From the NCBI GenBank assembly GCA_036676435.1, contig JAKFCV010000003.1, forward strand, positions 606 through 64,605: a stretch of 64,000 bases of DNA. The letters are read 5' to 3'. Shown here piece after piece: positions 26,164-59,615 of this stretch (position 1 is its first letter; every line of letters starts with the position of its first letter). Made by a program: the position numbers and the translations under genes. This DNA is from Pedobacter sp. GTDB lineage: Bacteria > Bacteroidota > Bacteroidia > Sphingobacteriales > Sphingobacteriaceae. The notes beneath the pieces were generated by a model that worked only from the letters and a program-made list of their open reading frames with translations, was not told where the DNA came from and searched no databases.

Positions 26164-27702
26164 ATGTCGTTTTATAAACGAAATTCTAAGGAGATTCAGG
26201 TGATTCTGTTTCTAACAATCCTGAAACTTTCTATTCATCTGGCGTCTAACAGCCGTTTTGGTTTTCACCGTGATGAGCTGCTGTATATGGCAATGGCAGA
26301 TCATTTAAGCTGGGGATATAAGGAAGTGCCTCCCTTTATTGCAGGAGTTTCCTGGTTTTCAAACACATTTTTAGGGGACAGCGTATTTGCAATGCGATTG
26401 ATCCCTACTTTAGCAAGTACATTAATTATAAGTATAACCGGTTTAACTGTCCTTTTAATGAAGGGAGGCAAATTCGCAATCTTCGTGGCCTGTTCTGCTA
26501 TGATAGTCTCACCTGCATTTCTTGCGTCGGGCTATTTGCTCCAGCCTGTAGTTTTTGACCAATTGTTTTGGGTGATATCGGCCTATCTTACCTTTAAGTA
26601 TATTCAAACTCAAAAAACCAATTATGTTTATTTTTTAGGTGCTACTGTTGGAATAGGAATGCTTAATAAATATACCATGGCATTTTTTATCCTGGCACTA
26701 ATTACCGCCCTTTTGGTAAGTCCGCATCGAAAATTATTATTTAACAGGAGTTGGGGAATTGCATTCTTAATAGCCTTTCTAATCTTTCTTCCAAACCTCA
26801 TCTGGCAGATTACCCATAATCTCCCGGTAATTTCACATATGAAGGAATTGAGGAATAAGCAACTCGCTTTTATCAATTCGCCCGACTTTATCCTTCAACT
26901 GCTAATCGTTCATGCTTCAGCCACCATAGTGTGGCTAAGTGGATTTTTTTACTTATTCATAAGTAAAAGCAATAATAAATATGCTTTCGCAGGGATTTCT
27001 TTTATCCTGATGATCTTGATTCTATTAGTTCTTAACGGAAAAGTTTATTACAGTTTTGGAGCCTTTCCAATATTATTTGCAGCGGGGGGAGTTTGCTTTC
27101 AAAAAGTGATGGGAAGTATAAAATCACCTTATAAATATTCGGCCGCATCCCTTATATTAATTCCTTCCCTTTTTCTTATTCCAATCGTGGTACCTATTTT
27201 ATCATTTGGATCCACCCTGAGATTTTTTGAAATTACTTCCAGATCCGGCCTTAAATTTCCGCTTAAATGGGAAGATCAGATAGAACATGCGACAACTCAG
27301 GATTATGGAGATATGTTAGGTTGGGAAGAGATTGCCAGGTATACCCAAATCGCTTACCAATCGATACCTGTGGATCAGCGCGCCCAAACGACCATTGTTG
27401 CCGGTAATTACGGGCAAGCCGGAGCTATTCAATATTTTCGTGCAAAATATAATCTTCCTGAACCTGTTTGTTTAAACAGCAGTTTTGCACTATGGGCCCC
27501 TGAAAGTATAGCTACCCACCATCTCATTGTAATAGATGATTATGATAATAAAATAACAGAGGCCTATGAAATGGTCAAAGAAGTCGGAATAGTTGAAAAC
27601 TCACACGCACGCGAAAAAGGTACCAAAATCTACCTACTCTCAAATCCATTAGTTGATATTAATTCCATTTATAGAAGGGAGCGTATTAAGGCATTGAAAT
27701 GA
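26164..27702 (+). CDS. GT39/ArnT-like GT-C glycosyltransferase (polyprenyl-phosphate-sugar dependent)
   Basis: 512 aa. About 11 N-terminal TM helices with an early-loop FHRDELLYM motif (acidic DE in the first periplasmic loop), plus a C-terminal soluble domain, as in the ArnT/PMT family. Confidence 0.75.
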   Translation: MSFYKRNSKEIQVILFLTILKLSIHLASNSRFGFHRDELLYMAMADHLSWGYKEVPPFIAGVSWFSNTFLGDSVFAMRLIPTLASTLIISITGLTVLLMKGGKFAIFVACSAMIVSPAFLASGYLLQPVVFDQLFWVISAYLTFKYIQTQKTNYVYFLGATVGIGMLNKYTMAFFILALITALLVSPHRKLLFNRSWGIAFLIAFLIFLPNLIWQITHNLPVISHMKELRNKQLAFINSPDFILQLLIVHASATIVWLSGFFYLFISKSNNKYAFAGISFILMILILLVLNGKVYYSFGAFPILFAAGGVCFQKVMGSIKSPYKYSAASLILIPSLFLIPIVVPILSFGSTLRFFEITSRSGLKFPLKWEDQIEHATTQDYGDMLGWEEIARYTQIAYQSIPVDQRAQTTIVAGNYGQAGAIQYFRAKYNLPEPVCLNSSFALWAPESIATHHLIVIDDYDNKITEAYEMVKEVGIVENSHAREKGTKIYLLSNPLVDINSIYRRERIKALK

Positions 27703-27822
27703 GAAAAATTACCCGAAATTTTAATTAATAAAAAAACCGGCAATAATAGATTTGCGTATCCTTTTATAACCCAAAAGTAGAGTTCCTTTAATGTCAAGCG
27801 GCACTGCCTAACTATTTATTAT

Positions 27823-29097
27823 ATGAACATTGTCATTATTGGCAACGGAATTACAGGAATTACCTGTGCACGAAATATACGAAAACTCAACTCTAGAGCA
27901 GATATAACTATTATCTCTGGTGAGAGTGACCACTTCTATGCCCGTACAGCACTTATGTATATTTACATGGGTCATATGAAATATGAACACACCAAGCCTT
28001 TTGAGGATTGGTTTTGGAAGAAAAACAGAATACAACTCCTCAATGCATGGGTAACGGGAATTGACACAACTTCCAAAACCATTTTATTTCAACAAAACCC
28101 CGTCATTTCATATGATATATTAATTATTGCCAGCGGATCATTACCAAACAAATTAGGTTGGCCAGGTGAAAATCTGAAGGGAGTTCAAGGTCTATATAGT
28201 CTGCAGGATCTTCAGAGTATGGAAAGGGATACTTCCGGTATATCAAATGCGGTAATTATAGGAGGTGGACTAATAGGAATTGAGATGGCAGAGATGATTA
28301 GAAGCAGGAATATACCTGTGACTTTTCTTGTCAGAGAGGATAGATACTGGGGTAATATTTTACCTCCGGAAGAGTCCCAATTATTAGAAAGACATATTAA
28401 GGAGCATGGAATCCAAATTATGCTGAATACTGAGCTGGAAGAACTTATTGGTGATGAAAATGGCCGGGTAAAATCCATTAGAACAAAAACAGGGGAGAAT
28501 ATATCTTGCCAGTTTGCAGGACTTACTGCCGGAGTTTCTCCGAATATTAAATTTTTACAAGAAAGTTCCATAGAAACAGATAAAGGCATTCTTGTAAATG
28601 AATATTTTGAAACAAGCATTGCAGATATTTATGCCGCAGGAGATTGTGCGCAATTTCGGCAGCCAAAAGCAGGCCATCCGGCAATAGAACAATTATGGTA
28701 TACCGGAAAAATGCATGGCGAAGCCCTTGCAAAAACCCTTTGCGGTAATAAAACGATTTATAATCGTGGGATATGGTTTAATTCGGCTAAATTTCTGGAT
28801 ATTGAATACCAAACATATGGACATATAAGCCCAAATCTTCCGGAAGATCAGGAAAGTTTTTACTGGGAACATCCCCAGGGTAAAATAGCCTTCAGAGCAA
28901 ATTACACTAAAGCAGATAAGGTTCTTGTCGGATTTAATTTTTTGGGTATCAGGTTCAGGCAGACCATAGCAGAGGACTGGATCGGCAAAAAAAGAACGAT
29001 TGATCATGCTATTACCCATTTAAAAGAAGGCTGGTTTGACCCCGAATTTTCAAAACAATATTATAAAGAAATAGCTATTTCGTTTTCCCGTCGATAA
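27823..29097 (+). CDS. NAD(P)H/FAD-dependent pyridine-nucleotide-disulfide-family oxidoreductase (ferredoxin/rubredoxin-reductase-like)
   Basis: Two Rossmann dinucleotide motifs (IIGNGITG and IIGGGLIG) and the AAGDCA FAD motif. Confidence 0.85.
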   Translation: MNIVIIGNGITGITCARNIRKLNSRADITIISGESDHFYARTALMYIYMGHMKYEHTKPFEDWFWKKNRIQLLNAWVTGIDTTSKTILFQQNPVISYDILIIASGSLPNKLGWPGENLKGVQGLYSLQDLQSMERDTSGISNAVIIGGGLIGIEMAEMIRSRNIPVTFLVREDRYWGNILPPEESQLLERHIKEHGIQIMLNTELEELIGDENGRVKSIRTKTGENISCQFAGLTAGVSPNIKFLQESSIETDKGILVNEYFETSIADIYAAGDCAQFRQPKAGHPAIEQLWYTGKMHGEALAKTLCGNKTIYNRGIWFNSAKFLDIEYQTYGHISPNLPEDQESFYWEHPQGKIAFRANYTKADKVLVGFNFLGIRFRQTIAEDWIGKKRTIDHAITHLKEGWFDPEFSKQYYKEIAISFSRR

Positions 29098-29128
29098 TTA
29101 ACTTTGTTCAACCTTTGAAAAAATTTAA

Positions 29129-30451
29129 ATGCAAAATATCTCTATTTCCATAGCAAAACCGGTTGGAGCTCAGGCTTTACAAAAACTTGGGGCAAGCCTG
29201 ATTGCATTTTCAATTCTTTGCTCCGTGATAGCAGCTTTCGGACCGGGGAAATCTGAATCGCTGCTTTTCTTTTGGCTGATAATCTTATCAGCAACTCTGG
29301 CAGGACTAATTTACACCATTCCATTCTTTTTAACCAGCCCCGGAATTAAGAATAATTATATAATGAAAGACCCTGCAACAAATCGCGGGACTATCGCATG
29401 GGGTATTGCTATGTTAATGACCGGTTTTTATATCATCCTGTATTGGTTCCCTTTTTATCTGGATGGTCTAATCAGGACTATGGATCCGCTTAGCCTTATG
29501 TTAAGAAACCGAACAGCCGATCATTGGTTTTTATACGGCACCTTTTATACCCTGGCAGTCCTGGTAATGGGAATTCGGTTTATTGGGAAATATCGGCATA
29601 GCCGGTATCATATATTCAGGACAATTTCCGTAATGTTCTTTCAGCTTGGTTTCGCTTTTTTAATTCCGGCATTTTTATTAAAACTGAACCAGCCTGAATT
29701 CTATTTTTCGTATTTCTGGCCCTTAAAGTATTCCTATCTGTTTCCAAATGATATCCAATCTCTGGTCGACTCCGGCAACCTGGGAATATTTATGGTTTTT
29801 TGGGGCATGATAATGACTTTTATTGCCACCCCAATTCTTTCGTACAACTATGGCAAACGTTGGTATTGTTCCTGGGTCTGCGGCTGTGGGGCTTTAGCAG
29901 AAACGCTCGGTGACCCATACCGCCAGAATTCCGACAAATCACTCAAAGCCTGGAAAATAGAACGGTGGATGGTTCATCTGGTGCTGGTTTTTATCACTGT
30001 TACTACGGGCTTACTATGGTTAAATTCATGGAAGAGTGGAACCATCTTAGGAGATGCATCCGGATTATTCGCTCAATGGTACGGTTTTCTTATTGGCTCT
30101 GTTTTTTCCGGGGTTATAGGAACCGGTTTTTACCCAATTCTGGGATCAAGGGTCTGGTGTCGTTTCGGTTGTCCGATGGCGGCTATTCTGGGGCTGTTCC
30201 AGCGATTTAAATCCAAATTTCGAATAAGCACCAACGGAGCTCAATGCATTTCCTGTGGGAATTGCTCTACTTACTGCGAAATGGGAATTGATGTACGGGC
30301 GTATGCTCAAAAAGGAGAAAATATTATCCGTGCCTCCTGCGTCGGATGTGGGGTGTGCTCATCTGTATGTCCACGTGGAGTTTTAAAGTTGGAAAACCTG
30401 GATGAAGGCGGACGGTTTATCCCATATATCCGTCCTGAAGATAAATTATGA
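29129..30451 (+). CDS. Polytopic membrane polyferredoxin (NapH/NosR/CcoG-like 4Fe-4S protein)
   Basis: Multiple TM helices, the membrane-proximal Cys motifs YCSWVCGCG and WCRFGCPMA, and two C-terminal ferredoxin motifs CISCGNCSTYC and CVGCGVCSSVCP. Confidence 0.85.
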   Translation: MQNISISIAKPVGAQALQKLGASLIAFSILCSVIAAFGPGKSESLLFFWLIILSATLAGLIYTIPFFLTSPGIKNNYIMKDPATNRGTIAWGIAMLMTGFYIILYWFPFYLDGLIRTMDPLSLMLRNRTADHWFLYGTFYTLAVLVMGIRFIGKYRHSRYHIFRTISVMFFQLGFAFLIPAFLLKLNQPEFYFSYFWPLKYSYLFPNDIQSLVDSGNLGIFMVFWGMIMTFIATPILSYNYGKRWYCSWVCGCGALAETLGDPYRQNSDKSLKAWKIERWMVHLVLVFITVTTGLLWLNSWKSGTILGDASGLFAQWYGFLIGSVFSGVIGTGFYPILGSRVWCRFGCPMAAILGLFQRFKSKFRISTNGAQCISCGNCSTYCEMGIDVRAYAQKGENIIRASCVGCGVCSSVCPRGVLKLENLDEGGRFIPYIRPEDKL

Positions 30452-31155
30452 TATCAGATAGTATTCCAAATAATTCTGTTTACCTGATCATCCCGGCCTT
30501 TAATGAATGCGCTTCTATAGGGAAAGTTATCTCAGATGTTCCCAGTACTTTAGTGGAAGAGATAATTGTAATTGACAATGCCTCCACTGATAAAACTTCC
30601 GAAGTTGCCGCTAAAAGTGGGGCCACCGTTCTATTTGAGACCAGAAAAGGCTATGGATTTGCCTGTTTAAAAGGAATTGATTATGTCCGCCCCAAGGCAA
30701 CCGATAATGATATTATTGTATTTATAGATGGCGATTATTCGGATTTCCCGCAGGAATTAAGCATACTGCTTAAACCAATCCAAAGCGGGCTAGCCGACCT
30801 GGTAATTGGTTCCCGAGTTCTGGGTAACAGACAGGCCAATTCCATGTTAATCCAACAGATAGTAGGAAACTGGATCGCTACCCGCTTAATAAAAATACTC
30901 TTCCGTACTCAGTTTACAGATCTTGGCCCATTCAGAGCTATTAAATGGGGCGCATTGGAGAAACTCAAAATGACAGATAAAACTTTCGGTTGGACCGTAG
31001 AAATGCAGGTTAAGGCAGCAAAATTTAAACTAAATTGCCAGGAAGTCCCCGTAAGTTACCGGAAGCGGATTGGTGTGAGTAAGGTGTCTGGCACTATTAA
31101 TGGAGCTTTTATGGCAGGTTATAAAATCTTGCTGACAATCTTTAAAAACATTTAG
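30448..31155 (+). CDS. Soluble GT2 glycosyltransferase, polyprenyl-phosphate sugar synthase-like (DPM1/GtrB-like)
   Basis: IIPAFNE, VIDNASTD and FIDGDYSD motifs. The start ATG overlaps the upstream stop (ATGA at 30448-30451). Confidence 0.85.
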   Translation: MISDSIPNNSVYLIIPAFNECASIGKVISDVPSTLVEEIIVIDNASTDKTSEVAAKSGATVLFETRKGYGFACLKGIDYVRPKATDNDIIVFIDGDYSDFPQELSILLKPIQSGLADLVIGSRVLGNRQANSMLIQQIVGNWIATRLIKILFRTQFTDLGPFRAIKWGALEKLKMTDKTFGWTVEMQVKAAKFKLNCQEVPVSYRKRIGVSKVSGTINGAFMAGYKILLTIFKNI

Positions 31156-31176
31156 GATTAGCTTCCTCAAACGATT

Positions 31177-32649
31177 ATGTTGGAATTTATTGTTATCATC
31201 TTATACTGTGTATTCTTATTTTTTATTATACTCTTTAGTCTAGGGCAACTCGCTCTACTTCTTTCATTTTTAAAGAACAAAAAAAAAGTATTTATCTCGG
31301 TCCCTTTAAAGGTATGGCCGAAAGTTACCGTTCAGCTACCTGTTTTCAATGAACGCTATGTTATAAAAAGGCTTCTCGACAGCGTAACTTCTTTGAACTA
31401 CCCTAAAGATAAACTTGAAATCCAGGTTTTAGATGATTCCACAGATGATACGACCATCATAGCCGCTTCACGTATAGATTTTTTTCGATCTGCGGGGTTT
31501 AATATTGAACACATTTGCCGCCCAAACCGGACAGGATTTAAAGCCGGGGCCTTGCAAAATGGGATTGAAAGATCTTCGGGCGAATTTATAGCCATATTTG
31601 ATGCCGATTTCATTCCAAATCCTGATTTCTTAAGGGAAACTTTACCTCATTTCAGGAAGGAAACAGGAATGGTTCAAACTCGCTGGGGATATATTAATGC
31701 CAAACAATCCTTGTTAACACGTGCTCAGGAAATAGGCTTAAACAGTCATTTTAATATCGATCAGGGAGGGCGGAATAAGGGCGGATATTTTATCAGTTTT
31801 AACGGCACCGCAGGTATCTGGAGAAAAAGCTGCATTACTGACGCAGGCGGGTGGCAAACAGATACACTAACCGAAGATCTTGACTTGAGCTATAGGGCTC
31901 AAATGAAGGGTTGGAAGTTCATCTATTGTCCTGATATCAATTCACCATCTGAACTCCCCTATTTACTAAGTGCGGTACGATCACAACAATTCCGATGGAT
32001 AAAGGGAGGGGTTGAAACATCTAAAAAGCTATTGAGTAATTTATGGAAGTGCCGTTTATCCTTATCAGTAAAACTATTTGCCACTTTCCATCTTCTCAGT
32101 AATTATGTTTATGTCTCCATATTATTTACAGGAATATTAAGCGTACCTGTCATGCTGATTAAGAATATGGTTCCCGGATATGGTATATTTTTTGAATGGA
32201 CCGGTGCATTTTTCATTATATTTCTTATCAATTTCATGTACTGCTTTACGGCAGTCTGGGTTGATAAAAAAGAACTCCGCTCCTCACTCAAAGAAATCTT
32301 TATAGCATTCCCGATAGCCATGCTTGTTTCAATGGGCTTATCCTACCACAATACCAGGGCGGTTTTGTGTGGTTTGATGGGAACAAAATCAAACTTTGTC
32401 AGAACCCCCAAATTTAATAGTGCTAAGCTAACCGATCCGGGTTTTGAATATGCAGGCGAAAATAAAGACAAAAAAATAATCCCTGAGATCCTGCTGTTTC
32501 TCTACTTTCTGGTGGCTGTATTTACGGGATTATATTTTAAAGATTTTGCCTTCCTTTTCTACCACTTCCTCCTTATGGCAGGCTTCGGTTTAATACTCTA
32601 TCTGACATTCAATGAATCCGGAAATATTGTAAATAAAGCAAGTAAATAA
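31177..32649 (+). CDS. Membrane GT2 with the QxxRW motif (processive beta-glycan synthase-like or glycolipid synthase-like)
   Basis: One N-terminal TM helix, VQLPVFNE, LDDSTD, FDADF, TED, QQFRWIKG, then 4-5 C-terminal TM helices. Confidence 0.85.
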   Translation: MLEFIVIILYCVFLFFIILFSLGQLALLLSFLKNKKKVFISVPLKVWPKVTVQLPVFNERYVIKRLLDSVTSLNYPKDKLEIQVLDDSTDDTTIIAASRIDFFRSAGFNIEHICRPNRTGFKAGALQNGIERSSGEFIAIFDADFIPNPDFLRETLPHFRKETGMVQTRWGYINAKQSLLTRAQEIGLNSHFNIDQGGRNKGGYFISFNGTAGIWRKSCITDAGGWQTDTLTEDLDLSYRAQMKGWKFIYCPDINSPSELPYLLSAVRSQQFRWIKGGVETSKKLLSNLWKCRLSLSVKLFATFHLLSNYVYVSILFTGILSVPVMLIKNMVPGYGIFFEWTGAFFIIFLINFMYCFTAVWVDKKELRSSLKEIFIAFPIAMLVSMGLSYHNTRAVLCGLMGTKSNFVRTPKFNSAKLTDPGFEYAGENKDKKIIPEILLFLYFLVAVFTGLYFKDFAFLFYHFLLMAGFGLILYLTFNESGNIVNKASK

Positions 32650-34190: not shown

Positions 34191-35054
34191 CTAAAACTTC
34201 AGGTGTTTAACTGTAAGTCCGTTATTAATAAGCTGCTTTAAGGAATCAATACCCACGAGCAGGTGAGTTTCTACATATTCTTCCGTGACTTTAGAATCAC
34301 TATCGGCAGTTTTGACACCTTCAGGTATCATAGGCTGATCAGAAACCAGAAGTAAGGCTCCGGTAGGAATTTTATTAGCAAAGCCTGTAGTAAATATGGT
34401 AGCAGTTTCCATATCCACGGCCATGGCCCTTAAGCTTTTTAGATATTTTTTAAAAACTTTATCGTGTTCCCATACGCGGCGGTTGGTAGTGTATACCGTT
34501 CCTGTCCAGTAATCACGCGAATGGTCACGAATAGTGGTGGATATTGCCTTCTGCAAAGCAAAGGCGGGTAAGGCAGGAACTTCAGGAGGAAAATAATCAT
34601 TTGAGGTTCCCTCTCCTCTGATAGCAGCAATGGGCAGGATAAGATCGCCGATTTTATTTTTACTCTTTAATCCGCCGCATTTGCCCAGAAAAAGAACAGC
34701 TTTGGGTTTTATTGCAGTTAAAAGATCCATCATGGTTGCCGCCATCGGACTTCCCATCCCAAAATTAATGATTGTAATCCCATTTGCTGAAACACTCTGC
34801 ATAGGCTTATCTAAGCCCATTATGGGGGCATTACCATTCCATTCGGAGAAAAGAGTTAAATATCTGGAAAAATTGGTAAGCAGTATGAAAGAAGTGAAAT
34901 CACTTAGGGGTCTTCCTGTATATCTGGGCAGCCAGTTATGCACGATATCCTCTTTATTCTTAAGTCCCTTTTTGACTGGGGATTCGACCTCTTTAACTTT
35001 TTTGGGCTGCTTAGCCTCTGAGAGTTCCTTTTTAACCTCTTTTTCTTCGTTCAT
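34191..35054 (-). CDS. Nucleoside phosphorylase-fold enzyme (short AMP nucleosidase-like) with a Lys/Glu-rich N-terminal extension
   Basis: PNP_UDP-fold motifs (GMGSPMAA, GKCGG, AVDMETA). The first roughly 40 aa are KE-rich low complexity. Confidence 0.7.
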   Translation of the reverse strand: MNEEKEVKKELSEAKQPKKVKEVESPVKKGLKNKEDIVHNWLPRYTGRPLSDFTSFILLTNFSRYLTLFSEWNGNAPIMGLDKPMQSVSANGITIINFGMGSPMAATMMDLLTAIKPKAVLFLGKCGGLKSKNKIGDLILPIAAIRGEGTSNDYFPPEVPALPAFALQKAISTTIRDHSRDYWTGTVYTTNRRVWEHDKVFKKYLKSLRAMAVDMETATIFTTGFANKIPTGALLLVSDQPMIPEGVKTADSDSKVTEEYVETHLLVGIDSLKQLINNGLTVKHLKF

Positions 35055-38524: not shown

Positions 38525-38529
38525 ATCTG

Positions 38530-38611
38530 TGCGGATGAAGGGACTCGAACCCCCACGCCGTGAAGCGCCAGATCCTAAGTCTGGTGCGGCTACCAATTAC
38601 GCCACATCCGC
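38530..38611 (-). tRNA. tRNA-Leu, anticodon UAG
   Basis: The reverse complement folds as a cloverleaf. Acceptor stem is GCGGATG/CATCCGC. Anticodon arm is CCAGA-CTTAGGA-TCTGG, giving anticodon TAG. It has a long variable arm and a GTTCGAGTC T-loop region. CCA is not encoded. Confidence 0.9.
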
Positions 38612-48056: not shown

Positions 48057-49100
48057 ATGAACGATAACATAAATATACTGTATTTTATAAATGACAACGA
48101 AGATTCATTTTTAGAAGCATTCAAAAGTCCTGAATTTAAGCTCAGGCGCTCAAATCGCCTTTCGGATCTATCAACAATTGCTGAAAATTTTTCCATTTCG
48201 GAACTAAATTCAACTATTCTTATTGAAGTTACCCCTGCCAATTTCCATAGCACAATTCATGCTGCTAAAACGATTAAAAACAATTGGTATACCCGCAATT
48301 TGTTCATTATTTTCATTTTAACAGAAAATGATCCTAAATTTTCTAGTACGGCTCTGGCCCTGGGAATAAATGATTGTTATATAACCCCTGTTCCATACGA
48401 AGATCTTAAGGAACGTATAAGGTTTTTACATACCTTTTCGATACTCAAATCTCAGATCAGCCAGCTTCCGGAGCTTCCCAAAAAGGATTATGCAATCCCT
48501 ATGGTTAAAAGGGCGATAGATATAATTATATCAGGAACCGCCCTGCTGCTGCTAAGTCCCATCTTTCTAATCATCGCCATATTAATCAAGCTGGATTCAA
48601 AAGGGAGTGTGTTTTACACAAGCAAACGGGTGGGTACCGGGTACCGGATATTCGATTTCTATAAATTCCGTACGATGAGGGCTGATGCAGATAAAGAGGT
48701 TGCCAGTCTGCTGGAAAATAACCAGTATGGCAAAGCTTCATTTTTCAAACTTCAAAACGATCCCAGGGTTACAAAGCTTGGAAGCTTTCTCAGAAATACG
48801 AGTATTGATGAACTTCCGCAGTTACTTAATGTTTTGAAGGGCGAAATGTGTCTGGTAGGCAACAGGCCTCTCCCATTATATGAAGCTGAGTTATTAACCA
48901 CAAATGAATGGTCTACCCGGTTCTTAGGACCAGCGGGACTCACAGGCCTGTGGCAAATCAGCAAACGCGGAAAAAAGGATATGTCTGAAATAGAAAGAAA
49001 ACAGCTGGACAACTACTATGCAAGCAATTTTTCCCTTTATATGGATTTCAAAATTATCCTCAAAACATTCCCGGCTCTAATTCAAAAAGAAAAAGTCTAA
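48057..49100 (+). CDS. Priming sugar-phosphate transferase (bacterial sugar transferase, WbaP/PglC-like) with an N-terminal degenerate receiver-like domain
   Basis: The C-terminal roughly 200 aa carry [16 protein letters not shown] (re-entrant helix), [25 protein letters not shown] and LVGNRP. The N-terminal roughly 130 aa have a (beta-alpha)5 receiver-like pattern but lack the Asp and Lys hallmarks. Confidence 0.9.
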
Positions 49101-49165
49101 GTCTTGTCTTAAATATTTATGAAAAAAAAAATGGAACTGAAATCTTAACCTAATTATTATCTATC

Positions 49166-49843
49166 ATGAAAACAAACGCACTCTTAATCCTAATGATGCT
49201 TTCCGGCCTTGGGTCCACCTTCGCACAGGAATCCATTGTATCTCAAATCAATTATACTCAGCTGGAAAAGTACATCCAGTCCGCCCAGCAAAATTACCCC
49301 AGAAAACAGATCATGGCACTGAATACTGAGCGGGCAAAGAACGACGTGCCTTCGGCGACTTTATCCTACCTGGATATCTTTAATGCATCATATTTCTACA
49401 GACCAGATGGAGCCACATCTATAAATATGGCAAATCCCTATTTAGTTAACGGTTTCCAGTTCGGAGTCAATGTCAATATTGGCAATTTCCTTCAAAAGCC
49501 TTATGAGGTTAAGAAAGCCAGAACCGAATTAAAAATCGCACAGCTTGAAGAAAAAGAGTATGAAACTGTATTGACCAATGAGGTCAAAAGCCGGTATTAC
49601 GCCTATATTCTGCAATTAAACGAGTTAAAACTTAGGACTCAGTCTGCACAGGATAACAAAACCGTATCCGACGATATGCGCTATAAGTTTGAAAAAGGAG
49701 AAATAACCCTTCAGGTTTATAATGCCTCCAGGATCAGCGCATCAGGTGCGGATTCCAGCAGAATACAGTCTGAAATAGATTTCCTGAAGGCAAAGGATGC
49801 TCTCGAAGAAATTATTGGAAAAAAATTGGAGCAGATAAATTAA
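49166..49843 (+). CDS. Half-length TolC/outer-membrane-efflux-protein-like protein (single OEP repeat)
   Basis: Signal peptide (LSGLGSTFA), then one OEP-type repeat: an N-terminal LEKYIQSAQQNYP...A motif, a short beta segment and long heptad helices, ending ...AKDALEEIIG. At 225 aa it is about half of a normal TolC protomer. Confidence 0.6.
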   Translation: MKTNALLILMMLSGLGSTFAQESIVSQINYTQLEKYIQSAQQNYPRKQIMALNTERAKNDVPSATLSYLDIFNASYFYRPDGATSINMANPYLVNGFQFGVNVNIGNFLQKPYEVKKARTELKIAQLEEKEYETVLTNEVKSRYYAYILQLNELKLRTQSAQDNKTVSDDMRYKFEKGEITLQVYNASRISASGADSSRIQSEIDFLKAKDALEEIIGKKLEQIN

Positions 49844-49849
49844 ATCAAA

Positions 49850-52015
49850 ATGGAAACTAAAAGATTTTTCAAACTTTTAAAAAAATATCTGTGGGTATTA
49901 ATATTTCTGCCTGTTTTAACTGTGGTTATTACTTACCTCCTGGTTAAAGACCTTCCTGAAGAATATAAATCAGAAGCGCAGATTTCCACGGGCCTTGCAG
50001 ATCAGTCGCAACAGATGACCTCTGCCCAGAACATGGATTATTTCAGAATAAACCAGCAATTTTCAAGCATCATAGAGATGATGAAAATGAAGAAAATGAT
50101 AGATTTACTTTCCTATCAATTGCTTCTGCATGATCTTCGCTCTCCGGAGAGCACCTTTACCAGTTACAGTGACGAGATTAATAATCTAAGCCCGGCAGAA
50201 AAAAACGAAACTATAGCGTTTTTCACAAATAAACTATATGACAAATCTCCTATTACGATAGCCGATAATGGAAAAATCAAATTTTTCGATATTCTAAGGT
50301 CGATGAAATATGATGAGAAAAGCATCCGCAAAAACCTTGAAATAACCCGCAACGATAATAGTGATTTCATTACTATCAAATACATTTCAACCAATCCTCT
50401 ACAATCGGCCTTTGCTGTTAATACCTTATCCAATGAGTTTATTAACAGTTATGAGCTTGCAGTTAATCAAAATCAAACCAAGTCCATTGTCTTACTGGAT
50501 TCCTTATTAAAAAATAAGGAGCAGCACATGAATTCTAAAAACTCTGAGCTGAAGGATTATAAAATGGAAAATGGCGTATTAAATCTTGGCACCCAATCGG
50601 ATATCCTATATGCTCAGATCTCGGCTTATGAAGAAAGAAAAGCACAGGCCATCCGGGATATACAGGCAAACCAGGGGGCGATAGCCAGCATTAACAGCAA
50701 ACTGAGCAGCAGCAGCGATAATTATGTCGGCGGAACAGTAGTGAAGGATAATAATGACATAATTAATCTTCGTAATCAGCTGCAGATTGCAAATGAAAGA
50801 TTTGTTGACAATAACTTTAACCCAGCAGATAAGAGAAAAATCGATTCTCTTCAGAATTTGCTTTCAGCACAGGTATCCCGGACTTCCGACCGCTATCTAA
50901 ATGATCCGCTGGCAGCCAAGGAAAAACTTCTTGAACAAAAAAGATCTATGGAAATGTCCCTGGACCTGGCACGGAACAGTATCCGTTCTATTGACAGGGA
51001 ATTGGCACAGTTAAAAGGGAAGTATAATTCACTGGTACCCTTTGATGCCGGAATTCAAGGCTATGAGCGTGATGCTGAAGTTGCTACAAAAGAATACCTG
51101 GAAGTTTTAGAGCGCTATAATCAGGGAAATATTGAAAAAAGTGTGGGGCTAAGATTGCAGGTTGCTCAATTAGGTTTACCTGGCTTACCTATAACTTCGA
51201 AAAGAGTTTTATATACGTCTCTGTCCGGTATTTCCAGCCTGATGTTATTTCTTGTGGCCCTGATCCTGACCTACCTTTTTGATCGTTCTATAAATAATTC
51301 AAAACAATTAGCGGCAGCTACACAAAGTCCGGTAATTGGAAGCCTTACAAGTATTAAGGAACCCGGAATGGATCTTCAAAAGATCTGGAACAGCAATGAC
51401 GATCCGGATTATACCGTTTATAAGGATCTGTTGAGATCTCTGCGTTTTGAAATAGACCACCAGCTATCTCTAAATCAAAATGTAGTGGGCATTACCAGTC
51501 TGAGATCCGGAGAAGGCAAAACCTTTCTTTCCCTTGGACTTGCCTATGCATTTGCAATGACTGATAAAAAGGTATTATTAATAAGCAGCGATTTTGAAAA
51601 GCCTTCAATAGACCAGAAGCAGCTTCCGGCTCAATTTTTTGAAAACTTCCTGGTTAAACGTGAAATTCAAAAGGAAGACTATATCACGGTTTTAAACACC
51701 AAATCTACCAATGGTTCCTTATTGGAGATTCAAAATGAAAAGAATTTAAAAGCTGGCTTCGAAGTCTTGAAAAACGAATTCGATGTCATTATCATTGATA
51801 TAAGCAGTATGGGTAACAGTAATAAAGCCAAAGAATGGCTTCTGTTTGCTGATAAAAATCTTTCTGTCTTTGAGGCGGGAAAAACCCTTACCGACGATGA
51901 TAAAGAATTTGTATCATTCATTAAAGGTCAAAAAGGCTTTATGGGTTGGGTTATTAATAAAGTTAGAATGGGTGAGATGAATCAATCGTCGTACCTGGCC
52001 AAAAAATATGCCTGA
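49850..52015 (+). CDS. Polysaccharide co-polymerase (Wzz/GumC-type) fused to a BY-kinase-like P-loop domain
   Basis: TM1 near the N-terminus, a Wzz-like and coiled-coil periplasmic region, TM2 (LSGISSLMLFLVALILTYL), then Walker A SGEGKT, A' LLISSDFEKP and B DVIIIDIS. There is no C-terminal Tyr cluster. Confidence 0.85.
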   Translation: METKRFFKLLKKYLWVLIFLPVLTVVITYLLVKDLPEEYKSEAQISTGLADQSQQMTSAQNMDYFRINQQFSSIIEMMKMKKMIDLLSYQLLLHDLRSPESTFTSYSDEINNLSPAEKNETIAFFTNKLYDKSPITIADNGKIKFFDILRSMKYDEKSIRKNLEITRNDNSDFITIKYISTNPLQSAFAVNTLSNEFINSYELAVNQNQTKSIVLLDSLLKNKEQHMNSKNSELKDYKMENGVLNLGTQSDILYAQISAYEERKAQAIRDIQANQGAIASINSKLSSSSDNYVGGTVVKDNNDIINLRNQLQIANERFVDNNFNPADKRKIDSLQNLLSAQVSRTSDRYLNDPLAAKEKLLEQKRSMEMSLDLARNSIRSIDRELAQLKGKYNSLVPFDAGIQGYERDAEVATKEYLEVLERYNQGNIEKSVGLRLQVAQLGLPGLPITSKRVLYTSLSGISSLMLFLVALILTYLFDRSINNSKQLAAATQSPVIGSLTSIKEPGMDLQKIWNSNDDPDYTVYKDLLRSLRFEIDHQLSLNQNVVGITSLRSGEGKTFLSLGLAYAFAMTDKKVLLISSDFEKPSIDQKQLPAQFFENFLVKREIQKEDYITVLNTKSTNGSLLEIQNEKNLKAGFEVLKNEFDVIIIDISSMGNSNKAKEWLLFADKNLSVFEAGKTLTDDDKEFVSFIKGQKGFMGWVINKVRMGEMNQSSYLAKKYA

Positions 52016-53549
52016 GAAGCATGAAACCATTAGAAACTTATTTTCTTATTTGCTCAAAGGATTTTTTGAGCTACTATCAACCCTCTTTAAAACTCCACCT
52101 ATGAGGCAATACCTGCTTTCATTGCTTGAATTGTTCCAGAAAGGGCTTATGCTCCTTTTGGGACTTATTACGGCTCTTGTTATCGGGTTCTTTACTGCTC
52201 AGTTCGGTTCAGTAATCCCGGTAACAATAATCGTAGCATCAATAATTACAGCCTTACTGGTAGGAATATTTAAAAATCCGGAATATGGATTTATAGCTAC
52301 AATATCCTACTGTTTTCTCTTTTTCATTTTGGTAAGGGAAGCAGGTGGTTTCCCTTTTGGAATTGGAATAGAAATACTTCTGGCATTAACCTGGATAGCT
52401 ACCTGCATTCAGTACAAACGATATGACTGGCATCTGGTTAAAAATGACCTTGTTTATTTAATTTTTGCCTGGTTTATAATAAGTGTTCTGGAAATCCTAA
52501 ATCCTGCAGGAGCAAGCGTCATGGGATGGCTTCAGGAAATCAGAACCTCGGCGGTTTATCCGTTATTGATTATTCCGCTTGCATTTCTCTTCTTCACAAA
52601 AAACAGGAACCTTAATTTTTTTCTTATCCTTATTATGGCGCTTTCTGTAATAGCTACCTTAAACGGAATAAGGCAGGTTTATATAGGACTGTCGCCGGGA
52701 GAGCAAAAATTTCTCGATGAAGGCGGGGCAAGTACCCATTTATTATGGGGCAAGCTCAGGGTCTTTTCCTTTTTCAGTAACGCAAGTCAATATGGAGTAT
52801 CGCAAGCACATATAGGATTAATAGCATTTGTTCTTGCTCTCGGCCCTTTTAAGTGGTGGAAAAAAATAACGCTTCTGGCTGTATCAGGAATTCTGCTTTA
52901 CGGCATGCTGATATCAGGTACCAGAGGTGCTCTTTTTGCCTTGATAATCGGTGGAATTGTAGCTATTGTGCTGAGTAAAAATTACAAGATCCTGATCATA
53001 GGCAGTCTGTTGGTTTTATCCGGAGTAAGTGTGCTTAAATTCACTACTTATGGAAATGGACATTATGAGATCTACAGGCTTAGAACGGCTCTGGATCCCC
53101 AGGATGCATCATTAAATACCCGCTTCCTTAATCAGGAGATCCTAAAGGATTATTTAAAAACCCGTCCCTTCGGAGGTGGTTTAGGAGTAACCGGATTTTG
53201 GGGAGCCAAATACAATTCAGATAAATTTCTTTCTACCATTCCCCCTGATAGTTATTGGGTGAAGGTATGGGTGATGTATGGAATAGCAGGCCTGACCATC
53301 TGGTTCAGTATAATGATGTATATCCTGGGAAAATGCTGCGGAATAATATGGAAAATTCAGGATAAGAAACTGAAGTTTAAATTGATTGCACTTTGTTCAG
53401 GTGCGGCCGGAATTTTCTTTGCCAGTTATGGCAATGAAATCATTAACGATATGCCATCAGCATTGATAGTGAGCGTTTCCTGGGTATTTATCTATTTAGG
53501 GCCAAAATTAGACCGTCAAATTTTAAAACCCGAGCCAAATGCAGAATAG
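52008..53549 (+). CDS. O-antigen ligase/polymerase (Wzy-like) family membrane protein
   Basis: About 12 TM helices with a large loop carrying SGTRGALFAL (Wzy_C-like). Its start overlaps the upstream stop by 8 nt. Confidence 0.8.
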   Translation: MPEKHETIRNLFSYLLKGFFELLSTLFKTPPMRQYLLSLLELFQKGLMLLLGLITALVIGFFTAQFGSVIPVTIIVASIITALLVGIFKNPEYGFIATISYCFLFFILVREAGGFPFGIGIEILLALTWIATCIQYKRYDWHLVKNDLVYLIFAWFIISVLEILNPAGASVMGWLQEIRTSAVYPLLIIPLAFLFFTKNRNLNFFLILIMALSVIATLNGIRQVYIGLSPGEQKFLDEGGASTHLLWGKLRVFSFFSNASQYGVSQAHIGLIAFVLALGPFKWWKKITLLAVSGILLYGMLISGTRGALFALIIGGIVAIVLSKNYKILIIGSLLVLSGVSVLKFTTYGNGHYEIYRLRTALDPQDASLNTRFLNQEILKDYLKTRPFGGGLGVTGFWGAKYNSDKFLSTIPPDSYWVKVWVMYGIAGLTIWFSIMMYILGKCCGIIWKIQDKKLKFKLIALCSGAAGIFFASYGNEIINDMPSALIVSVSWVFIYLGPKLDRQILKPEPNAE

Positions 53550-54450
53550 TCCGCTTGTTTCCATTATCTCAATTAATTACGATCAGCCTCAGGTTACTTT
53601 CGGAATGCTGGAATCGCTAAGAAATTTATCTTACAAGAATATTGAGATCATAATAGTGGACAATGCATCGCCAAATCATGATCCTGAACAAATTAAACAA
53701 CGGTATCCAGAGATCAAACTTATAAAATCCGGTATAAATCTGGGTTTTGCCGGGGGTAATAACCTGGGAATTAAAGAGGCAAAGGGTAAATATCTTTTCT
53801 TTCTAAATAATGACACCGAAGTAACCAGCGATTGTTTAGAGCCTTTAGTGAACCTGTTTGAATCAAACAGCACAGCGGGAATTGCATCGCCCAAGATTAA
53901 ATTTTTCGATTCAGATAATATAATTCAATATGCCGGTTCAACGGAGATTAACCCCTGGACAGGGCGAAATCGTGGTATTGGAAGCATGGAGAAAGATACC
54001 GGACAATTCAACTTATCGACTAAAACAGATTTAGCCCATGGAGCGGCAATGATGGTTCCAAGGGCTGTTATTGATAAAGCGGGTTTAATGCCAGAGATAT
54101 ATTTTTTATACTATGAAGAACTGGATTGGTGTGAGATGATAAAAAGAGAAGGCTATTCCTGTCATTATGTTGGGGAGGCCTCTGTCTATCACAAAGAATC
54201 CATGTCGGTAGGAAAGGCTTCGCTCCTAAAAACCTATTACATAAACAGAAACCGGCTCCTGTTTATCCGCAGAAATTTTTCCGGATTTCAAAAGTGGTCC
54301 AGTTACCTCTTATTCCTCGCACTTGCTATTCCTAAAAGGTCTGCTGGGCATGCGATAAAAGGTGAATGGAAACATTGTATGGCATTATGGAGAGGGGTAT
54401 TCTGGAATTTGAAGTCAGCCATCCAACCACATATCCACAGCAATGTTTAA
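53539..54450 (+). CDS. GT2 glycosyltransferase (rhamnosyltransferase-like)
   Basis: VSIISINYD, IIVDNAS, GFAGGNN, FLNNDT and YYEELDWC motifs. Overlaps the upstream gene by 11 nt. Confidence 0.9.
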   Translation: MQNSPLVSIISINYDQPQVTFGMLESLRNLSYKNIEIIIVDNASPNHDPEQIKQRYPEIKLIKSGINLGFAGGNNLGIKEAKGKYLFFLNNDTEVTSDCLEPLVNLFESNSTAGIASPKIKFFDSDNIIQYAGSTEINPWTGRNRGIGSMEKDTGQFNLSTKTDLAHGAAMMVPRAVIDKAGLMPEIYFLYYEELDWCEMIKREGYSCHYVGEASVYHKESMSVGKASLLKTYYINRNRLLFIRRNFSGFQKWSSYLLFLALAIPKRSAGHAIKGEWKHCMALWRGVFWNLKSAIQPHIHSNV

Positions 54451-54606
54451 AGATTTAATGAATCCAAACTATATCTATCATGCCATTTGAATTCTTTTTA
54501 CTACCGGGTATACTCTTTCTCATTCTAGGTTTTCTGAATGGAAAGAAATATTACAGGAAACAAAATCCCTGATTATTGTTAAGATAATTTAAAGCGATTT
54601 GAAATT

Positions 54607-55248
54607 ATGACAGTTCAATTGAAGCAGATGTCCATAACAGCTAAGATAAAATCTAATCCGGTCCTCAAAAAGATGGCGCTTAGATTACTCATTCCCAGGA
54701 ATGAGTACCGGCCAAGAACCTGGGTGAAATGGTTTCTGAATCCATTTAAGCATAAGCATGGGCAGGGTTCTGTAATTAGAAGCCGCACAAGGACCGACCT
54801 GTTTCCCTACAATAATTTCACCCTCGGTAAGGACTCTGTCATTGAAGATTTTACTACCATAAACAATGCAGTGGGAGATGTGATCATCGGCGATAAAACG
54901 ATTATTGGTATTGGTTCGGTTATTATCGGACCTGTTGCCATCGGAAATAATGTTCTGATTGCCCAGAACATTGTCATGTCCGGATTAAACCACGGATATG
55001 AAGATGTTAATATCCCACCTTCGGAACATGAGGTTACATGTAAGCCTATCGTAATTTCAGATAATGTATGGATTGGAGCGAACAGCGTAATTACTGCAGG
55101 TGTCACCCTGGGTAAACACTGCGTAATCGGAGCAGGAAGCATTGTGACCAAAAGCATTCCCGATTATTGTGTGGCAGTGGGAAACCCGGCTAAAATTATT
55201 AAAAAGTATAATTCCGTCAGTAAAAGCTGGGAAAGCATTAAGCAATAA
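54607..55248 (+). CDS. Left-handed beta-helix (hexapeptide-repeat) O-acyltransferase
   Basis: Repeated [LIV]-G-x-x-x-x hexads (IGDKTIIGIGSVIIGPVAIGNNVLIAQN...VWIGANSVITAGVTLGKHCVIGAGSIV). Confidence 0.85.
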   Translation: MTVQLKQMSITAKIKSNPVLKKMALRLLIPRNEYRPRTWVKWFLNPFKHKHGQGSVIRSRTRTDLFPYNNFTLGKDSVIEDFTTINNAVGDVIIGDKTIIGIGSVIIGPVAIGNNVLIAQNIVMSGLNHGYEDVNIPPSEHEVTCKPIVISDNVWIGANSVITAGVTLGKHCVIGAGSIVTKSIPDYCVAVGNPAKIIKKYNSVSKSWESIKQ

Positions 55249-55260
55249 ATAACAATCAGA

Positions 55261-56490
55261 ATGATCCGAAATATTGAAGGCAGAGATATCGTAATAATAG
55301 GGCAACAGCCCTGGGATACCGATATAGGTAGCAATTGTAAGGACATCGCATTGGAAATGAGCAAGAGCAACCGAATATTGTACGTTAATTCTCCTCTGGA
55401 CAGGGCCACCAGGATCAGAAATAAAAATGATCAAAAAATAAAGAAACGAATTTCCATTGTAAATGGAAAGGAAACCGGATTGATCAGAATTAATGATAAC
55501 CTCTGGAACCTCTATCCTGATTGCATGGTGGAATCGATCAACTGGATCAATATCAGATATGTTTTTGATGCCATTAATAAGCAAAACAACAGAAAATTCG
55601 CTAATTCAATAAAGAAAGCACTGGATAAATTAAGCTTTAAGGACTATATATTATTCAACGATAATGAAATGTTCAAAGGCTTTTATTTAAAAGACTTTCT
55701 AAAACCCGAGCTCAGTGTTTACTATTCCAGAGATTATATGCTGGCAGTAGATTACTGGAAAAAGCACGGCGAAAGGCTGGAGCCCTTACTCATATCAAAG
55801 AACGATATATGTATGGCCAATTCTACATATTTGGCTGATTATTGCAAGCAATATAATTCCAACAGCTTTTACATCGGACAGGGATGCGATCTCGAAATGT
55901 TCAATAACATCACCGATATACCAGGGGTATTTAAAGATATTAAGGGTCCGATAATCGGATATGTAGGCGCACTCCAATCAATCCGCCTGGATATTGACCT
56001 GATAGCGGGGATAGCTCTGGCACGTCCTGACTGGAATATTGCACTCGTTGGCCCTGAAGATGAGAATTTCACATCCAGCATCTTGCACCAGCTCCCTAAT
56101 GTGATTTTTACAGGCTTAAAACCAATGAGCGAACTTCCCGCCTGTATCAAATCGTTTGATGTATGCATCAATCCGCAGTTAATCAATGAGGTGACCATAG
56201 GAAATTACCCCAGAAAAATAGATGAATATCTGGCGGTTGGTAAGCCGGTGGTTGCAACCCGGACCCGTGCAATGGATATTTTTCAGGACCACGTCTACCT
56301 GGCTGGCGACCTCGGGGAATATTTGAACTGTATTGAAGCGGCCCTGGGGGAGGAAAACCCATTACTTCAAACCAAAAGAAAAGATTTTGCACAATTGCAC
56401 ACCTGGAAAAATTGCGTTCAGGAGATCTATTCCATTCTAAACGCTGCAGAAAGCGGTAACTCTCAAAAACCAATCAATGAATTTAATTAA
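55261..56490 (+). CDS. GT-B fold glycosyltransferase (GT4/TuaH-like)
   Basis: C-terminal nucleotide-sugar-binding region GYVGAL...PRKIDEYLAVGKPVVAT (EX7E-like). Confidence 0.8.
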   Translation: MIRNIEGRDIVIIGQQPWDTDIGSNCKDIALEMSKSNRILYVNSPLDRATRIRNKNDQKIKKRISIVNGKETGLIRINDNLWNLYPDCMVESINWINIRYVFDAINKQNNRKFANSIKKALDKLSFKDYILFNDNEMFKGFYLKDFLKPELSVYYSRDYMLAVDYWKKHGERLEPLLISKNDICMANSTYLADYCKQYNSNSFYIGQGCDLEMFNNITDIPGVFKDIKGPIIGYVGALQSIRLDIDLIAGIALARPDWNIALVGPEDENFTSSILHQLPNVIFTGLKPMSELPACIKSFDVCINPQLINEVTIGNYPRKIDEYLAVGKPVVATRTRAMDIFQDHVYLAGDLGEYLNCIEAALGEENPLLQTKRKDFAQLHTWKNCVQEIYSILNAAESGNSQKPINEFN

Positions 56491-57661: not shown

Positions 57662-57733
57662 GACGCCTGAGAATAACCCATACTTATCAAAGAGCGACCC
57701 ATATAAATTTACAATTCCATTAAAACAACAAGC

Positions 57734-59547: not shown

Positions 59548-59615
59548 ACGTATCGGGAGTGTTTGCAGAATGACTGCAGATAGTTCTCTCTTTACCATTG
59601 CTTATATTACTGTCT

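Follow-up and report, generated by a model that had tools for sequence, protein, structure and literature searches.

A reductase, a membrane polyferredoxin and three glycosyltransferases at a Pedobacter locus: a conserved module recurrently linked to ArsS/ArsM operons

The locus in Pedobacter sp.

A stretch of 64,000 nucleotides from Pedobacter sp. (GenBank assembly GCA_036676435.1, contig JAKFCV010000003.1, positions 606 to 64,605 of the forward strand), referred to here as the window, carries four closely spaced, co-directional genes. They encode a soluble flavoprotein reductase (RED), a membrane polyferredoxin (PFD) and two glycosyltransferases (GTs) of family GT2, one soluble (GT2s) and one membrane-bound (GT2L). 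A fifth gene, coding for a GT87-like transferase of the GT-C type, is located further downstream. Orthologues of these genes make up the distal end of ArsS/ArsM 'arsenosugar' operons in many Bacteroidota and in some lineages outside them. The window is best read as a stand-alone copy of this five-gene module, which consists of two separable sub-modules, the RED-PFD pair and the GT trio; we give this joint reading a probability of about 0.5. The locus comprises the following features:

26164-27702, + strand: PMT_2 GT-C transferase (GT39/ArnT-like), 512 amino acids, PF13231 at E=7e-19
27747-27754, + strand: candidate operon promoter TAGATTTG, matching the -7 consensus TAnnTTTG, 68 nucleotides 5' of the RED start
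27823-29097, + strand: RED, soluble two-Rossmann flavoprotein binding flavin adenine dinucleotide (FAD) and NAD(P)H, of the group of ferredoxin and rubredoxin reductases, NADH oxidase (NOX) and coenzyme A disulfide reductase (CoADR), 424 amino acids
29129-30451, + strand: PFD, polytopic membrane polyferredoxin, NapH-like, 440 amino acids
30448-30451, + strand: ATGA stop/start overlap of PFD and GT2s, read in 'aaattATGAtatc'
30448-31155, + strand: GT2s, soluble GT2 of the polyprenyl-phosphate-hexose synthase type (DPM1/AglJ/GtrB-like), 235 amino acids
31177-32649, + strand: GT2L, membrane GT2 of the QxxRW type, 490 amino acids
39577-40899, + strand: GT87-like GT-C transferase, matches to GT87 and to the MptA/MptB type below cut-off

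From the PMT_2 gene through GT2L, the open reading frames are separated by 120, 31, -4 and 21 nucleotides. The coordinates, the shared strand and the spacing by 31 nucleotides, an ATGA overlap and 21 nucleotides given in a first-pass annotation of the sequence match the table of open reading frames exactly. Its domain calls for the five open reading frames from PMT_2 to GT2L were backed by Pfam and NCBIfam searches, and the cysteine motifs of PFD and the DxD, TED and QQFRW motifs of GT2L were located at the places that it had named. A single operon of RED, PFD, GT2s and GT2L is the best explanation of this arrangement and shares the even odds of the joint reading. The motif TAnnTTTG, which we take to be the -7 promoter consensus of Bacteroidota, was applied to TAGATTTG as a candidate only, and a scan of the intergenic gaps of the block for sigma-70 promoters and terminators returned nothing above chance. 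Both the closest PFD homologues and the closest loci come from Daejeonella genomes, which places the window in a Daejeonella-like member of Sphingobacteriaceae.

RED and PFD form a conserved pair

An alignment of PFD was used to scan one genome per species, and the best 80 of more than 584 loci were analyzed with flanks of up to 10 kb on each side. These loci span Bacteroidota, Ignavibacteria, Calditrichia, Rhodothermales, Chlorobiota, Thermodesulfobacteriota, Dadabacteria, Latescibacterota and others. In 76 of them, distributed over about eight phyla, PFD is immediately preceded by a RED gene, with RED identities of 44-68%; three of the four loci that lack it at this position are contig edges. 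In more distant PFD relatives (33-42% identity, 680-900 amino acids), a flavoprotein domain of the Pyr_redox_3/Pyr_redox_2 type is fused to the N-terminus, so that flavoprotein and polyferredoxin form single polypeptides (P0206, P0220, P0230, P0246, P0272 and P0276). Such Rosetta-stone fusions support a direct electron path from the flavoprotein to PFD. RED and PFD are a genuine partnership and an ancient two-gene unit.

RED matches Pyr_redox_2 (E=8e-51) and carries two GxGxxG motifs, GNGITG at residue 7 and GGGLIG at residue 147. It has just four cysteines, which are scattered (positions 15, 229, 275 and 307) and include no redox-active pair. Hydropathy analysis predicted no transmembrane segment in RED, and none of the NCBIfam equivalog cut-offs was reached. 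The best sequence matches in the PDB are NADH oxidase, ferredoxin and rubredoxin reductases and 8c0z_E, the FAD subunit of a polyferredoxin-containing aldehyde oxidoreductase (AOR), which is among the closest solved relatives of RED. The two-Rossmann FAD/NAD(P)H fold is common to RED and to the reductases of known pairs with iron-sulfur (Fe-S) proteins, such as TodA, putidaredoxin reductase and 8c0z_E, but the Fe-S partner of RED is an integral membrane protein. Because RED shares this fold and lacks a redox-active disulfide, it probably acts as an electron transferase to an Fe-S protein.

In L052 (7277-8617) and in nine other loci from Dadabacteria and Thermodesulfobacteriota (L063, L066, L070, L072, L074-L076, L078 and L080), the gene directly upstream of RED encodes a conserved protein of about 445 amino acids that gave no Pfam or NCBIfam match. 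Its 'RRSRRF' motif hints at a nitroreductase-like fold, and in L052 and L063 a GT87-like gene is found two genes further upstream.

In PFD, a Fer4_5 (NapH-type) domain is combined with a C-terminal 4Fe-4S dicluster. The motif YCSWVCGCG starts at residue 246, WCRFGCPMA at 343 and the two CxxCxxCxxxC motifs at 373 and 404; the NapH-type cysteines are C247-x3-C251-x-C253 and C344-x3-C348-P. Eight transmembrane helices were predicted by hydropathy and the positive-inside rule. All cysteine motifs fall into K/R-rich loops on the predicted cytoplasmic side, the same side as soluble RED, and a strongly conserved loop, PEFYFSYFWPLKY (residues 187-217), is placed on the opposite face. Identity to the homologues ranges from about 58 to 82% in the 80 loci and is about 60% across phyla; an alignment of 87 sequences drawn from many phyla contains 128 positions with a conservation of 95% or more. 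For a polytopic membrane protein, the identity in the 80 loci is unusually high. An AlphaFold2 model of PFD from a 70-sequence alignment reached a predicted local distance difference test score (pLDDT) of 66 and a predicted template modelling score (pTM) of 0.69 with a poorly modelled Fe-S domain, and an earlier model from 12 sequences (pLDDT 41) was unusable. A Foldseek search of the PDB with the former model (pLDDT 66) found no similar fold (best E=3, template modelling score below 0.2), and a PDB sequence search with PFD matched generic ferredoxin domains and nothing closer.

It is highly improbable that PFD is a respiratory accessory protein, namely an orthologue of NapH, NosR or CcoG/RdxA, with an incidental adjacency to GTs. 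PFD has in common with NapH/MauN, NosR and CcoG the CX3C(P)-type membrane-proximal motifs (Fer4_5) and a cytoplasmic C-terminal 2x[4Fe-4S] domain. NapH/MauN are also its best family matches, and several homologues were labelled 'ferredoxin-type protein NapH' by annotators of the Joint Genome Institute (JGI). These matches, however, score only 55.5 bits for TIGR02163 (cut-off 213) and 53.3 bits for NF007013 (cut-off 234), and PFD has four additional N-terminal transmembrane helices, eight in total compared to about four in the NapH/NosR/CcoG type. As its invariant partner, PFD has a cytoplasmic NAD(P)H flavoprotein instead of NapG, NosZ or the cbb3 oxidase, and no nap, nos, cco or other respiratory genes recur in the 80 PFD neighbourhoods. 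On these grounds, orthology to NapH/MauN was rejected, mau genes likewise not recurring nearby. NosR was rejected on scores, architecture and neighbourhood, its periplasmic domain binding flavin mononucleotide (FMN) being absent from PFD. The first-pass annotation had considered orthology to CcoG/RdxA as a finding that would speak against its proposal; this identity (CcoG/RdxA/FixG) was rejected as well, because Fer4_18 is matched weakly and below cut-off (E=0.007), the C-terminus of PFD falls immediately after the dicluster with no FixG_C match listed, and cco neighbours are lacking.

The glycosyltransferases

GT2s matches Glycos_transf_2 (E=3.5e-18) with a DGD motif at residue 94. Its NCBIfam scores stay far from the cut-offs (139 versus 325 bits for AglJ, 64 versus 375 for the dolichyl-phosphate (Dol-P) hexose transferase and 61 versus 370 for PpgS). 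It aligns over residues 10-216 with the dolichyl-phosphate mannose (Dol-P-Man) synthase of PDB entry 5mlz (E=7e-8). As far as its sequence can tell, GT2s fits the description of a polyprenyl-phosphate hexose synthase, a GT-A domain with DxD that occurs together with a GT-C consumer. GT2L matches Glyco_tranf_2_3, Glyco_trans_2_3 and Glyco_transf_21 in Pfam, has six predicted transmembrane helices (one N-terminal and five C-terminal) and contains DDS at residue 86, DAD at 142, TED at 232 and QQFRW at 270. In the PDB, it matches BcsA (E=3e-22), the archaeal membrane GT2 6yv7 (1e-13) and ceramide glucosyltransferase (2e-6); its NCBIfam scores are 119.5 versus 422 bits for PgaC, 113 versus 699 for CelA and 41 versus 550 for NodC.

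Genes for GT2s and/or GT2L follow PFD in 34 of the 80 loci, all from Sphingobacteriales, Chitinophagales or other Bacteroidota. The linkage of the redox pair to GT2 genes, as noticed in the window, is therefore no coincidence and recurs in other genomes despite changes in gene order, which is PFD-GT2s-GT2L in Daejeonella versus PFD-GT2L-GT2s in Chitinophagaceae. Wherever GTs accompany PFD, one GT gene always follows it directly. The ATGA coupling had been proposed as a feature to look for elsewhere: it is kept in the closest relatives (L001, L003-L007) and not beyond them, and in Chitinophagaceae an overlap of 4-8 nucleotides sits at the GT2L/GT2s junction instead.

The conserved third transferase of the module is the GT87-like GT-C. 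The window protein shares 37-38% identity over about 415-435 amino acids with the Chitinophagaceae protein that follows GT2L-GT2s, in some loci with one gene, f19, in between. It scores 16 bits versus 25 for GT87 (E=0.0098), 36.7 versus 40 for MptB and 40 versus 439 for MptA, and the orthologue in L018 clears the Pfam GT87 cut-off (28 versus 25). Its gene immediately follows the module genes in Chitinophagaceae; in Daejeonella and the window, a distance of about 7-10 kb separates it from them, and its relative position in the Daejeonella relatives is equivalent. In the window, the interval from GT2L covers about 7 kb and contains six genes on the opposite strand, clpX, clpP and tig among them, and a tRNA-Leu gene. 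The first-pass annotation had instead assigned the role of GT-C partner to the GT39/ArnT-like PMT_2 protein encoded 120 nucleotides upstream of RED. This proposal did not hold: a homologue is present in 1 of the 80 loci only (L011, 54% identity), and in the other Daejeonella-type loci RED directly follows murA with no PMT_2 gene between them. The PMT_2 gene is thus a local, lineage-specific insertion, and it was rejected as a component of the system on the basis of synteny.

The term 'hard-wired', which had been used for the pairing of redox and GT genes, also proved too strong. RED-PFD occurs without GTs within 10 kb in most phyla, and the GT trio occurs without RED-PFD in three ArsS clusters (L099, L145 and L150). 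The module is real and conserved, modular rather than hard-wired, and stands in a partly known pathway context.

The combination of a small DPM-like GT2 and a co-inherited GT87-type GT-C resembles the systems of polyprenyl-phosphate-mannose-dependent periplasmic glycosylation, in which Ppm1/DPM1 is paired with a GT-C enzyme (PimE, MptA/MptB; GtrA/GtrB/Gtr*). Unlike in these systems, GT2s has no C-terminal transmembrane anchor, no GtrA-like flippase was identified, and the module adds a synthase-like GT2 and a redox pair, all matches being below threshold. GT2L has the D, DxD, TED and QxxRW motifs and the flanking transmembrane helices in common with BcsA, PgaC, NodC and the ceramide and MGlcDG glucosyltransferases, but it lacks partners of the PilZ, BcsB or PgaB type and scores far below the equivalogs. 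A gene of the GH113 (beta-mannanase) family often adjoins related loci, as BcsZ adjoins BcsA; it was seen beside the module in 13 of the ArsS and 3 of the PFD loci and suggests a mannan-type product of the GT trio. Mannose is favoured as the sugar because of the likeness of GT2s to Dol-P-Man synthase, the weak GT87/MptA/MptB matches and the GH113 neighbours.

The GH113 gene (L103, 16336-17352 on the - strand, and 12 other ArsS loci; L018, L019 and L056 among the PFD loci) is placed beside RED or after the GT87-like gene. Its product starts with a lipoprotein-like hydrophobic segment, and a metallophosphoesterase gene is often found alongside. In Chitinophagaceae, the gene between GT2s and the GT87-like gene (f19; 4382-5305 in L018 and seven other loci) codes for a protein of about 307 amino acids with a lipoprotein-like start and no family match.

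Linkage to arsenosugar operons

Nine of the 80 PFD loci, from at least four lineages, have ArsS, ArsM, TIGR04282 or TIGR04283 genes within 10 kb. These assignments pass the NCBIfam cut-offs (566 versus 400 bits for ArsM and 453 versus 300 for ArsS; TIGR04282 and TIGR04283 pass too). A DUF547 gene lies directly upstream of RED in 18 of the 80. In L051, one co-directional run comprises ArsS, a fatty-acid-hydroxylase-like gene, TIGR04282, a purine nucleoside phosphorylase (PNP), PHO4, DUF547, TIGR04283, RED and PFD, followed in its 3' part by GT2L, ArsM, MsrBA and a ResA-like thioredoxin.

The reverse approach took an ArsS alignment as the query and yielded 80 loci from a separate collection of metagenome contigs, again with flanks of 10 kb. 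A cluster was regarded as well covered when three or more further core ars genes were present and the cluster-side flank spanned 8 kb or more (n=22). RED/PFD and/or GT2s, GT2L or the GT87-like gene were found in 15 of these 22, compared to 1 of 15 ArsS loci without core genes; since the flank was limited to 10 kb, 15/22 is a lower bound. The most complete arrangement is that of L139, in which 12 abutting or overlapping genes follow the order TIGR04169 (peroxidase-like), ArsS, rhodanese (NF045521), TIGR04282, PNP, ArsM, DUF547, TIGR04283, RED, PFD, GT2s and GT2L. At a query coverage of at least 50%, the window proteins share 49-54% (RED), 44-58% (PFD), 53-61% (GT2s) and 42-48% (GT2L) identity with their counterparts in the ArsS-seeded loci. 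Coding regions of PFD and a GT abut or overlap in the 34 PFD loci and in at least eight ArsS loci. Ars genes adjoin module orthologues in L020, L023, L031, L051, L071 and L098-L152, and orthologues of all five module genes occur within such operons or at their end. Both sub-modules are thus shown to be recurrently linked to each other and to ArsS/ArsM clusters, although the window differs from these clusters in lacking the defining ars genes within its 64 kb. None of the five module proteins of the window passes a curated NCBIfam cut-off.

In a neighbour-joining tree of the 87 PFD sequences, ars-linked PFDs occupy many positions, deep branches included, and are interleaved with unlinked ones, as expected of one orthologous family with patchy linkage. 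The clade of the window PFD is nested within a GT-linked clade of Sphingobacteriales and Chitinophagales. The linkage can be arranged as a series that leads from the full operon (L139) over DUF547-RED-PFD-GTs (Ginsengibacter and other Chitinophagaceae) and RED-PFD-GTs (Daejeonella and the window) to RED-PFD alone (other phyla).

Other proteins can take the place of the redox pair. In L099, L145 and L150, GT2s-GT2L-GT87 follow TIGR04283 or DUF547, and a 139-amino-acid membrane protein is encoded in the slot of RED-PFD. In the soil Ferruginibacter-like loci L164 (13397-14833) and L165 (6675-8120), a class-I flavoprotein disulfide reductase related to MerA, glutathione reductase (GR) and lipoamide dehydrogenase (LipDH) directly follows TIGR04283. 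The occurrence of RED-PFD or a MerA/GR-type reductase at one and the same slot indicates that a position for an NAD(P)H-dependent reductase recurs and is filled by different proteins.

The 139-amino-acid protein (10692-11111 in L099) has no family assignment and showed no similarity to PFD in any of the three loci; its first hydrophobic segment bears a CC motif ('GIICCVAPAV'). The disulfide reductase of L164 and L165 scores below all equivalog cut-offs and is accompanied by a protein of about 105 amino acids; its position is that of RED-PFD in marine clusters, and no GT trio lies within the flank. A related family (f38) is found near RED-PFD in the Rhodothermales loci L055, L058 and L069.

In five Chitinophagaceae-type loci (L020, L023, L024, L025 and L029), MsrB and MsrA genes and a gene for a small lipoprotein (f58) are located upstream of DUF547-RED-PFD, and the MsrA/MsrB products start with signal-peptide-like segments (examples from L020). 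N-terminal hydrophobic, signal-peptide-like segments were recognized by eye, not by a predictor, in the DUF547, MsrA, MsrB and rhodanese neighbours. Together with the MsrBA and thioredoxin genes of L051, the Msr genes beside DUF547-RED-PFD hint that the redox pair serves periplasmic reductases.

To our knowledge, and in the literature that was found, ArsM and ArsS are the only proteins with an experimentally demonstrated part in the formation of arsenosugars or arsenosugar lipids. Both are said to have been characterized experimentally by Xue in 2019. A passage of PMC12159101 that cites Cheng 2021 likewise describes ArsM and the radical-SAM enzyme ArsS as experimentally characterized. The literature found assigns no genes to the removal of adenine, the activation of arsenoribose or its attachment to glycerol, lipids or glycans.

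A proposed mechanism and its alternatives

From these patterns we infer an electron path with its acceptor, the sugar that is transferred and a possible arsenical or non-arsenical use of the module in the window genome. Electrons from cytoplasmic NAD(P)H would enter at the FAD of RED and pass through the two C-terminal [4Fe-4S] clusters of PFD to its membrane-proximal NapH-type cysteine sites, from which they would reach an acceptor in or beyond the membrane. The most likely task of RED-PFD would be to hold a pathway species or a partner in the reduced state. Because ArsM and ArsS need As(III), arsenate and As(V)-oxo organoarsenicals are candidate acceptors; other candidates are S=O groups and the exported DUF547, Msr, thioredoxin-like and rhodanese proteins. 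On the side of the GTs, GT2s would charge polyprenyl phosphate with a hexose, probably mannose, on the inner side of the membrane, and the GT87-like GT-C would spend the polyprenyl-P-hexose on the outer face. GT2L may make and/or translocate the membrane-anchored acceptor glycan or glycolipid. In full operons one may speculate that PNP, the nucleotidyltransferase-like TIGR04282 and the GT2 TIGR04283 could turn the ArsS product into an activated arsenoribose.

Several points weigh against the stand-alone module as a relative of arsenosugar operons. ArsS, ArsM, TIGR04282, TIGR04283, TIGR04169, DUF547, PHO4 and GH113 were not found in the 64-kb window, nor were homologues of the rhodanese (NF045521) and of f19. 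The same ars genes, DUF547, PHO4 and GH113 were not found in the flanks (up to 10 kb per side) of 11 Daejeonella-type loci. Few of the ArsS matches listed (at least 120) are named; these are Ferruginibacter, Sphingobacteriaceae or metagenome records, none of them Daejeonella. The 'arsenosugar' names of TIGR04282, TIGR04283 and TIGR04169 derive from gene neighbourhood, not from experiment, and NF045521 was likewise named by NCBIfam from gene context. Every family match of the GTs remains below the curated cut-offs, so that donor and acceptor are guesses. In about 46 of the 80 RED-PFD loci, both GTs and ars genes are lacking over a distance of 10 kb, and the pair may therefore have a general role unrelated to either. 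Finally, ArsS reportedly acts on trivalent dimethylarsenic, DMAs(III), in a redox-neutral adenosylation without stoichiometric reductant (PMC13598754), which makes RED-PFD an unlikely electron donor of ArsS. The idea that RED-PFD is an obligatory donor is weakened further by the existence of ArsS clusters without it.

Part of this evidence would be accommodated if RED-PFD were an autonomous, general membrane redox unit, for instance an NAD(P)H:quinone oxidoreductase or a transmembrane conduit for the reduction of periplasmic thiols, sulfoxides or metals, and the GT trio an ordinary pathway for an envelope mannan or glycolipid. Arsenosugar operons would have recruited both secondarily; the two would be neighbours because both serve the envelope, and there would be no arsenic role in the window genome. 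This explanation is possible, if somewhat doubtful. It agrees with the solitary RED-PFD of most phyla, with the GT trios of L099, L145 and L150, with the window free of ars genes and with the exported MsrA, MsrB, ResA-like thioredoxin and DUF547 proteins encoded beside RED-PFD in several loci. Proteins of the NapH, NosR and CcoG types deliver electrons to acceptors in the periplasm or the membrane. A precedent for the reduction of metals or metalloids by such an architecture is set by CcoG, a related polyferredoxin of the membrane that acts as a cupric reductase. However, an adjacency of PFD and GTs that survives changes of gene order in 34 PFD loci and at least eight ArsS loci exceeds loose co-regulation, and one or both sub-modules are carried by 15 of the 22 full ArsS clusters against 1 of 15 controls. 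The original proposal, in which the redox pair acts on glycosylation through reduction or saturation of the sugar or the polyprenyl carrier, or through redox-gating of the GTs, is improbable. The GT gene that always comes directly after PFD where GTs are present and the ATGA overlap of PFD and GT2s in the window and its close relatives would fit it well. The sub-modules are nevertheless separable in both directions, and their common slot is held in L099, L145 and L150 by a membrane protein unrelated to PFD and in L164 and L165 by a MerA/GR-like reductase. As the latter occurs with no GT trio within the flank, the reductive step appears to belong with the ars genes and not with the GTs. All polyprenol reductases known to us are, moreover, of families other than those of RED and PFD.

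The stand-alone five-gene module thus remains the reading that we prefer for the window. A far-reaching extension of it, which as a whole must be called unlikely, would make RED-PFD a new class of NAD(P)H-driven membrane reductase acting on organoarsenicals or arsenate and the GT trio the late enzymes of arsenosugar-lipid synthesis. RED-PFD would then either hold dimethyl-arsenic trivalent so that ArsS can use it, or reduce the arsenosugar at its As(V)=O group, and GT2s, GT2L and the GT87-like enzyme would move arsenoribose via polyprenyl phosphate onto a glycolipid or glycan of the outer face. For Daejeonella, this would mean a copy that is either a relic or has been put to another use.

Other features of the window

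Between the block and the GT87-like gene, a PNP_UDP_1 phosphorylase-superfamily gene is found at 34191-35054 on the - strand. The PNP of the arsenosugar operons belongs to the same Pfam superfamily, and a tblastn comparison of the window gene with the ars-cluster PNP was negative at 1e-5. In all Daejeonella loci the gene is syntenic with clpX, clpP and tig, so it is probably a housekeeping gene. A separate surface-polysaccharide locus occupies 48057-61856 (+ strand). The individual features are:

38529-38611, - strand: tRNA-Leu, between tig and a periplasmic-binding-protein gene, just upstream of the GT87-like region
49850-52015, + strand: Wzz plus P-loop protein, surface-polysaccharide locus
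52008-53549, + strand: Wzy_C/O-antigen-ligase-like protein, surface-polysaccharide locus
53539-54450 and 61047-61856, + strand: GT2 genes, surface-polysaccharide locus

Significance

The types of component are familiar; what has not been described is their combination, the fact that it is joined to arsenosugar operons, and what RED-PFD does. A description of the RED-PFD-GT module was not found in searches of the literature on arsenosugar genes, DUF547 and NapH/polyferredoxin proteins with glycosyltransferases. The view of the first-pass annotation that this is not a described pathway calls for a qualification, as the module extends a neighbourhood that NCBIfam already names arsenosugar biosynthesis. 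The five uncharacterized genes that travel with ArsS/ArsM operons make up a short list of candidates for the late steps of arsenosugar or arsenolipid formation. According to marine surveys, arsenosugar lipids may have bacterial sources (bioRxiv 10.1101/2021.03.22.436501). If the unlikely extension outlined above were true, bacteria, and not algae alone, would be a defined genetic source of these compounds; the window copy, with no ars genes in 64 kb, tempers this claim for the genome studied here. RED-PFD is a very highly conserved orphan pair for which no solved structural relative of PFD was found, and it may be a new route by which the electrons of cytoplasmic NAD(P)H reach the membrane or the envelope.

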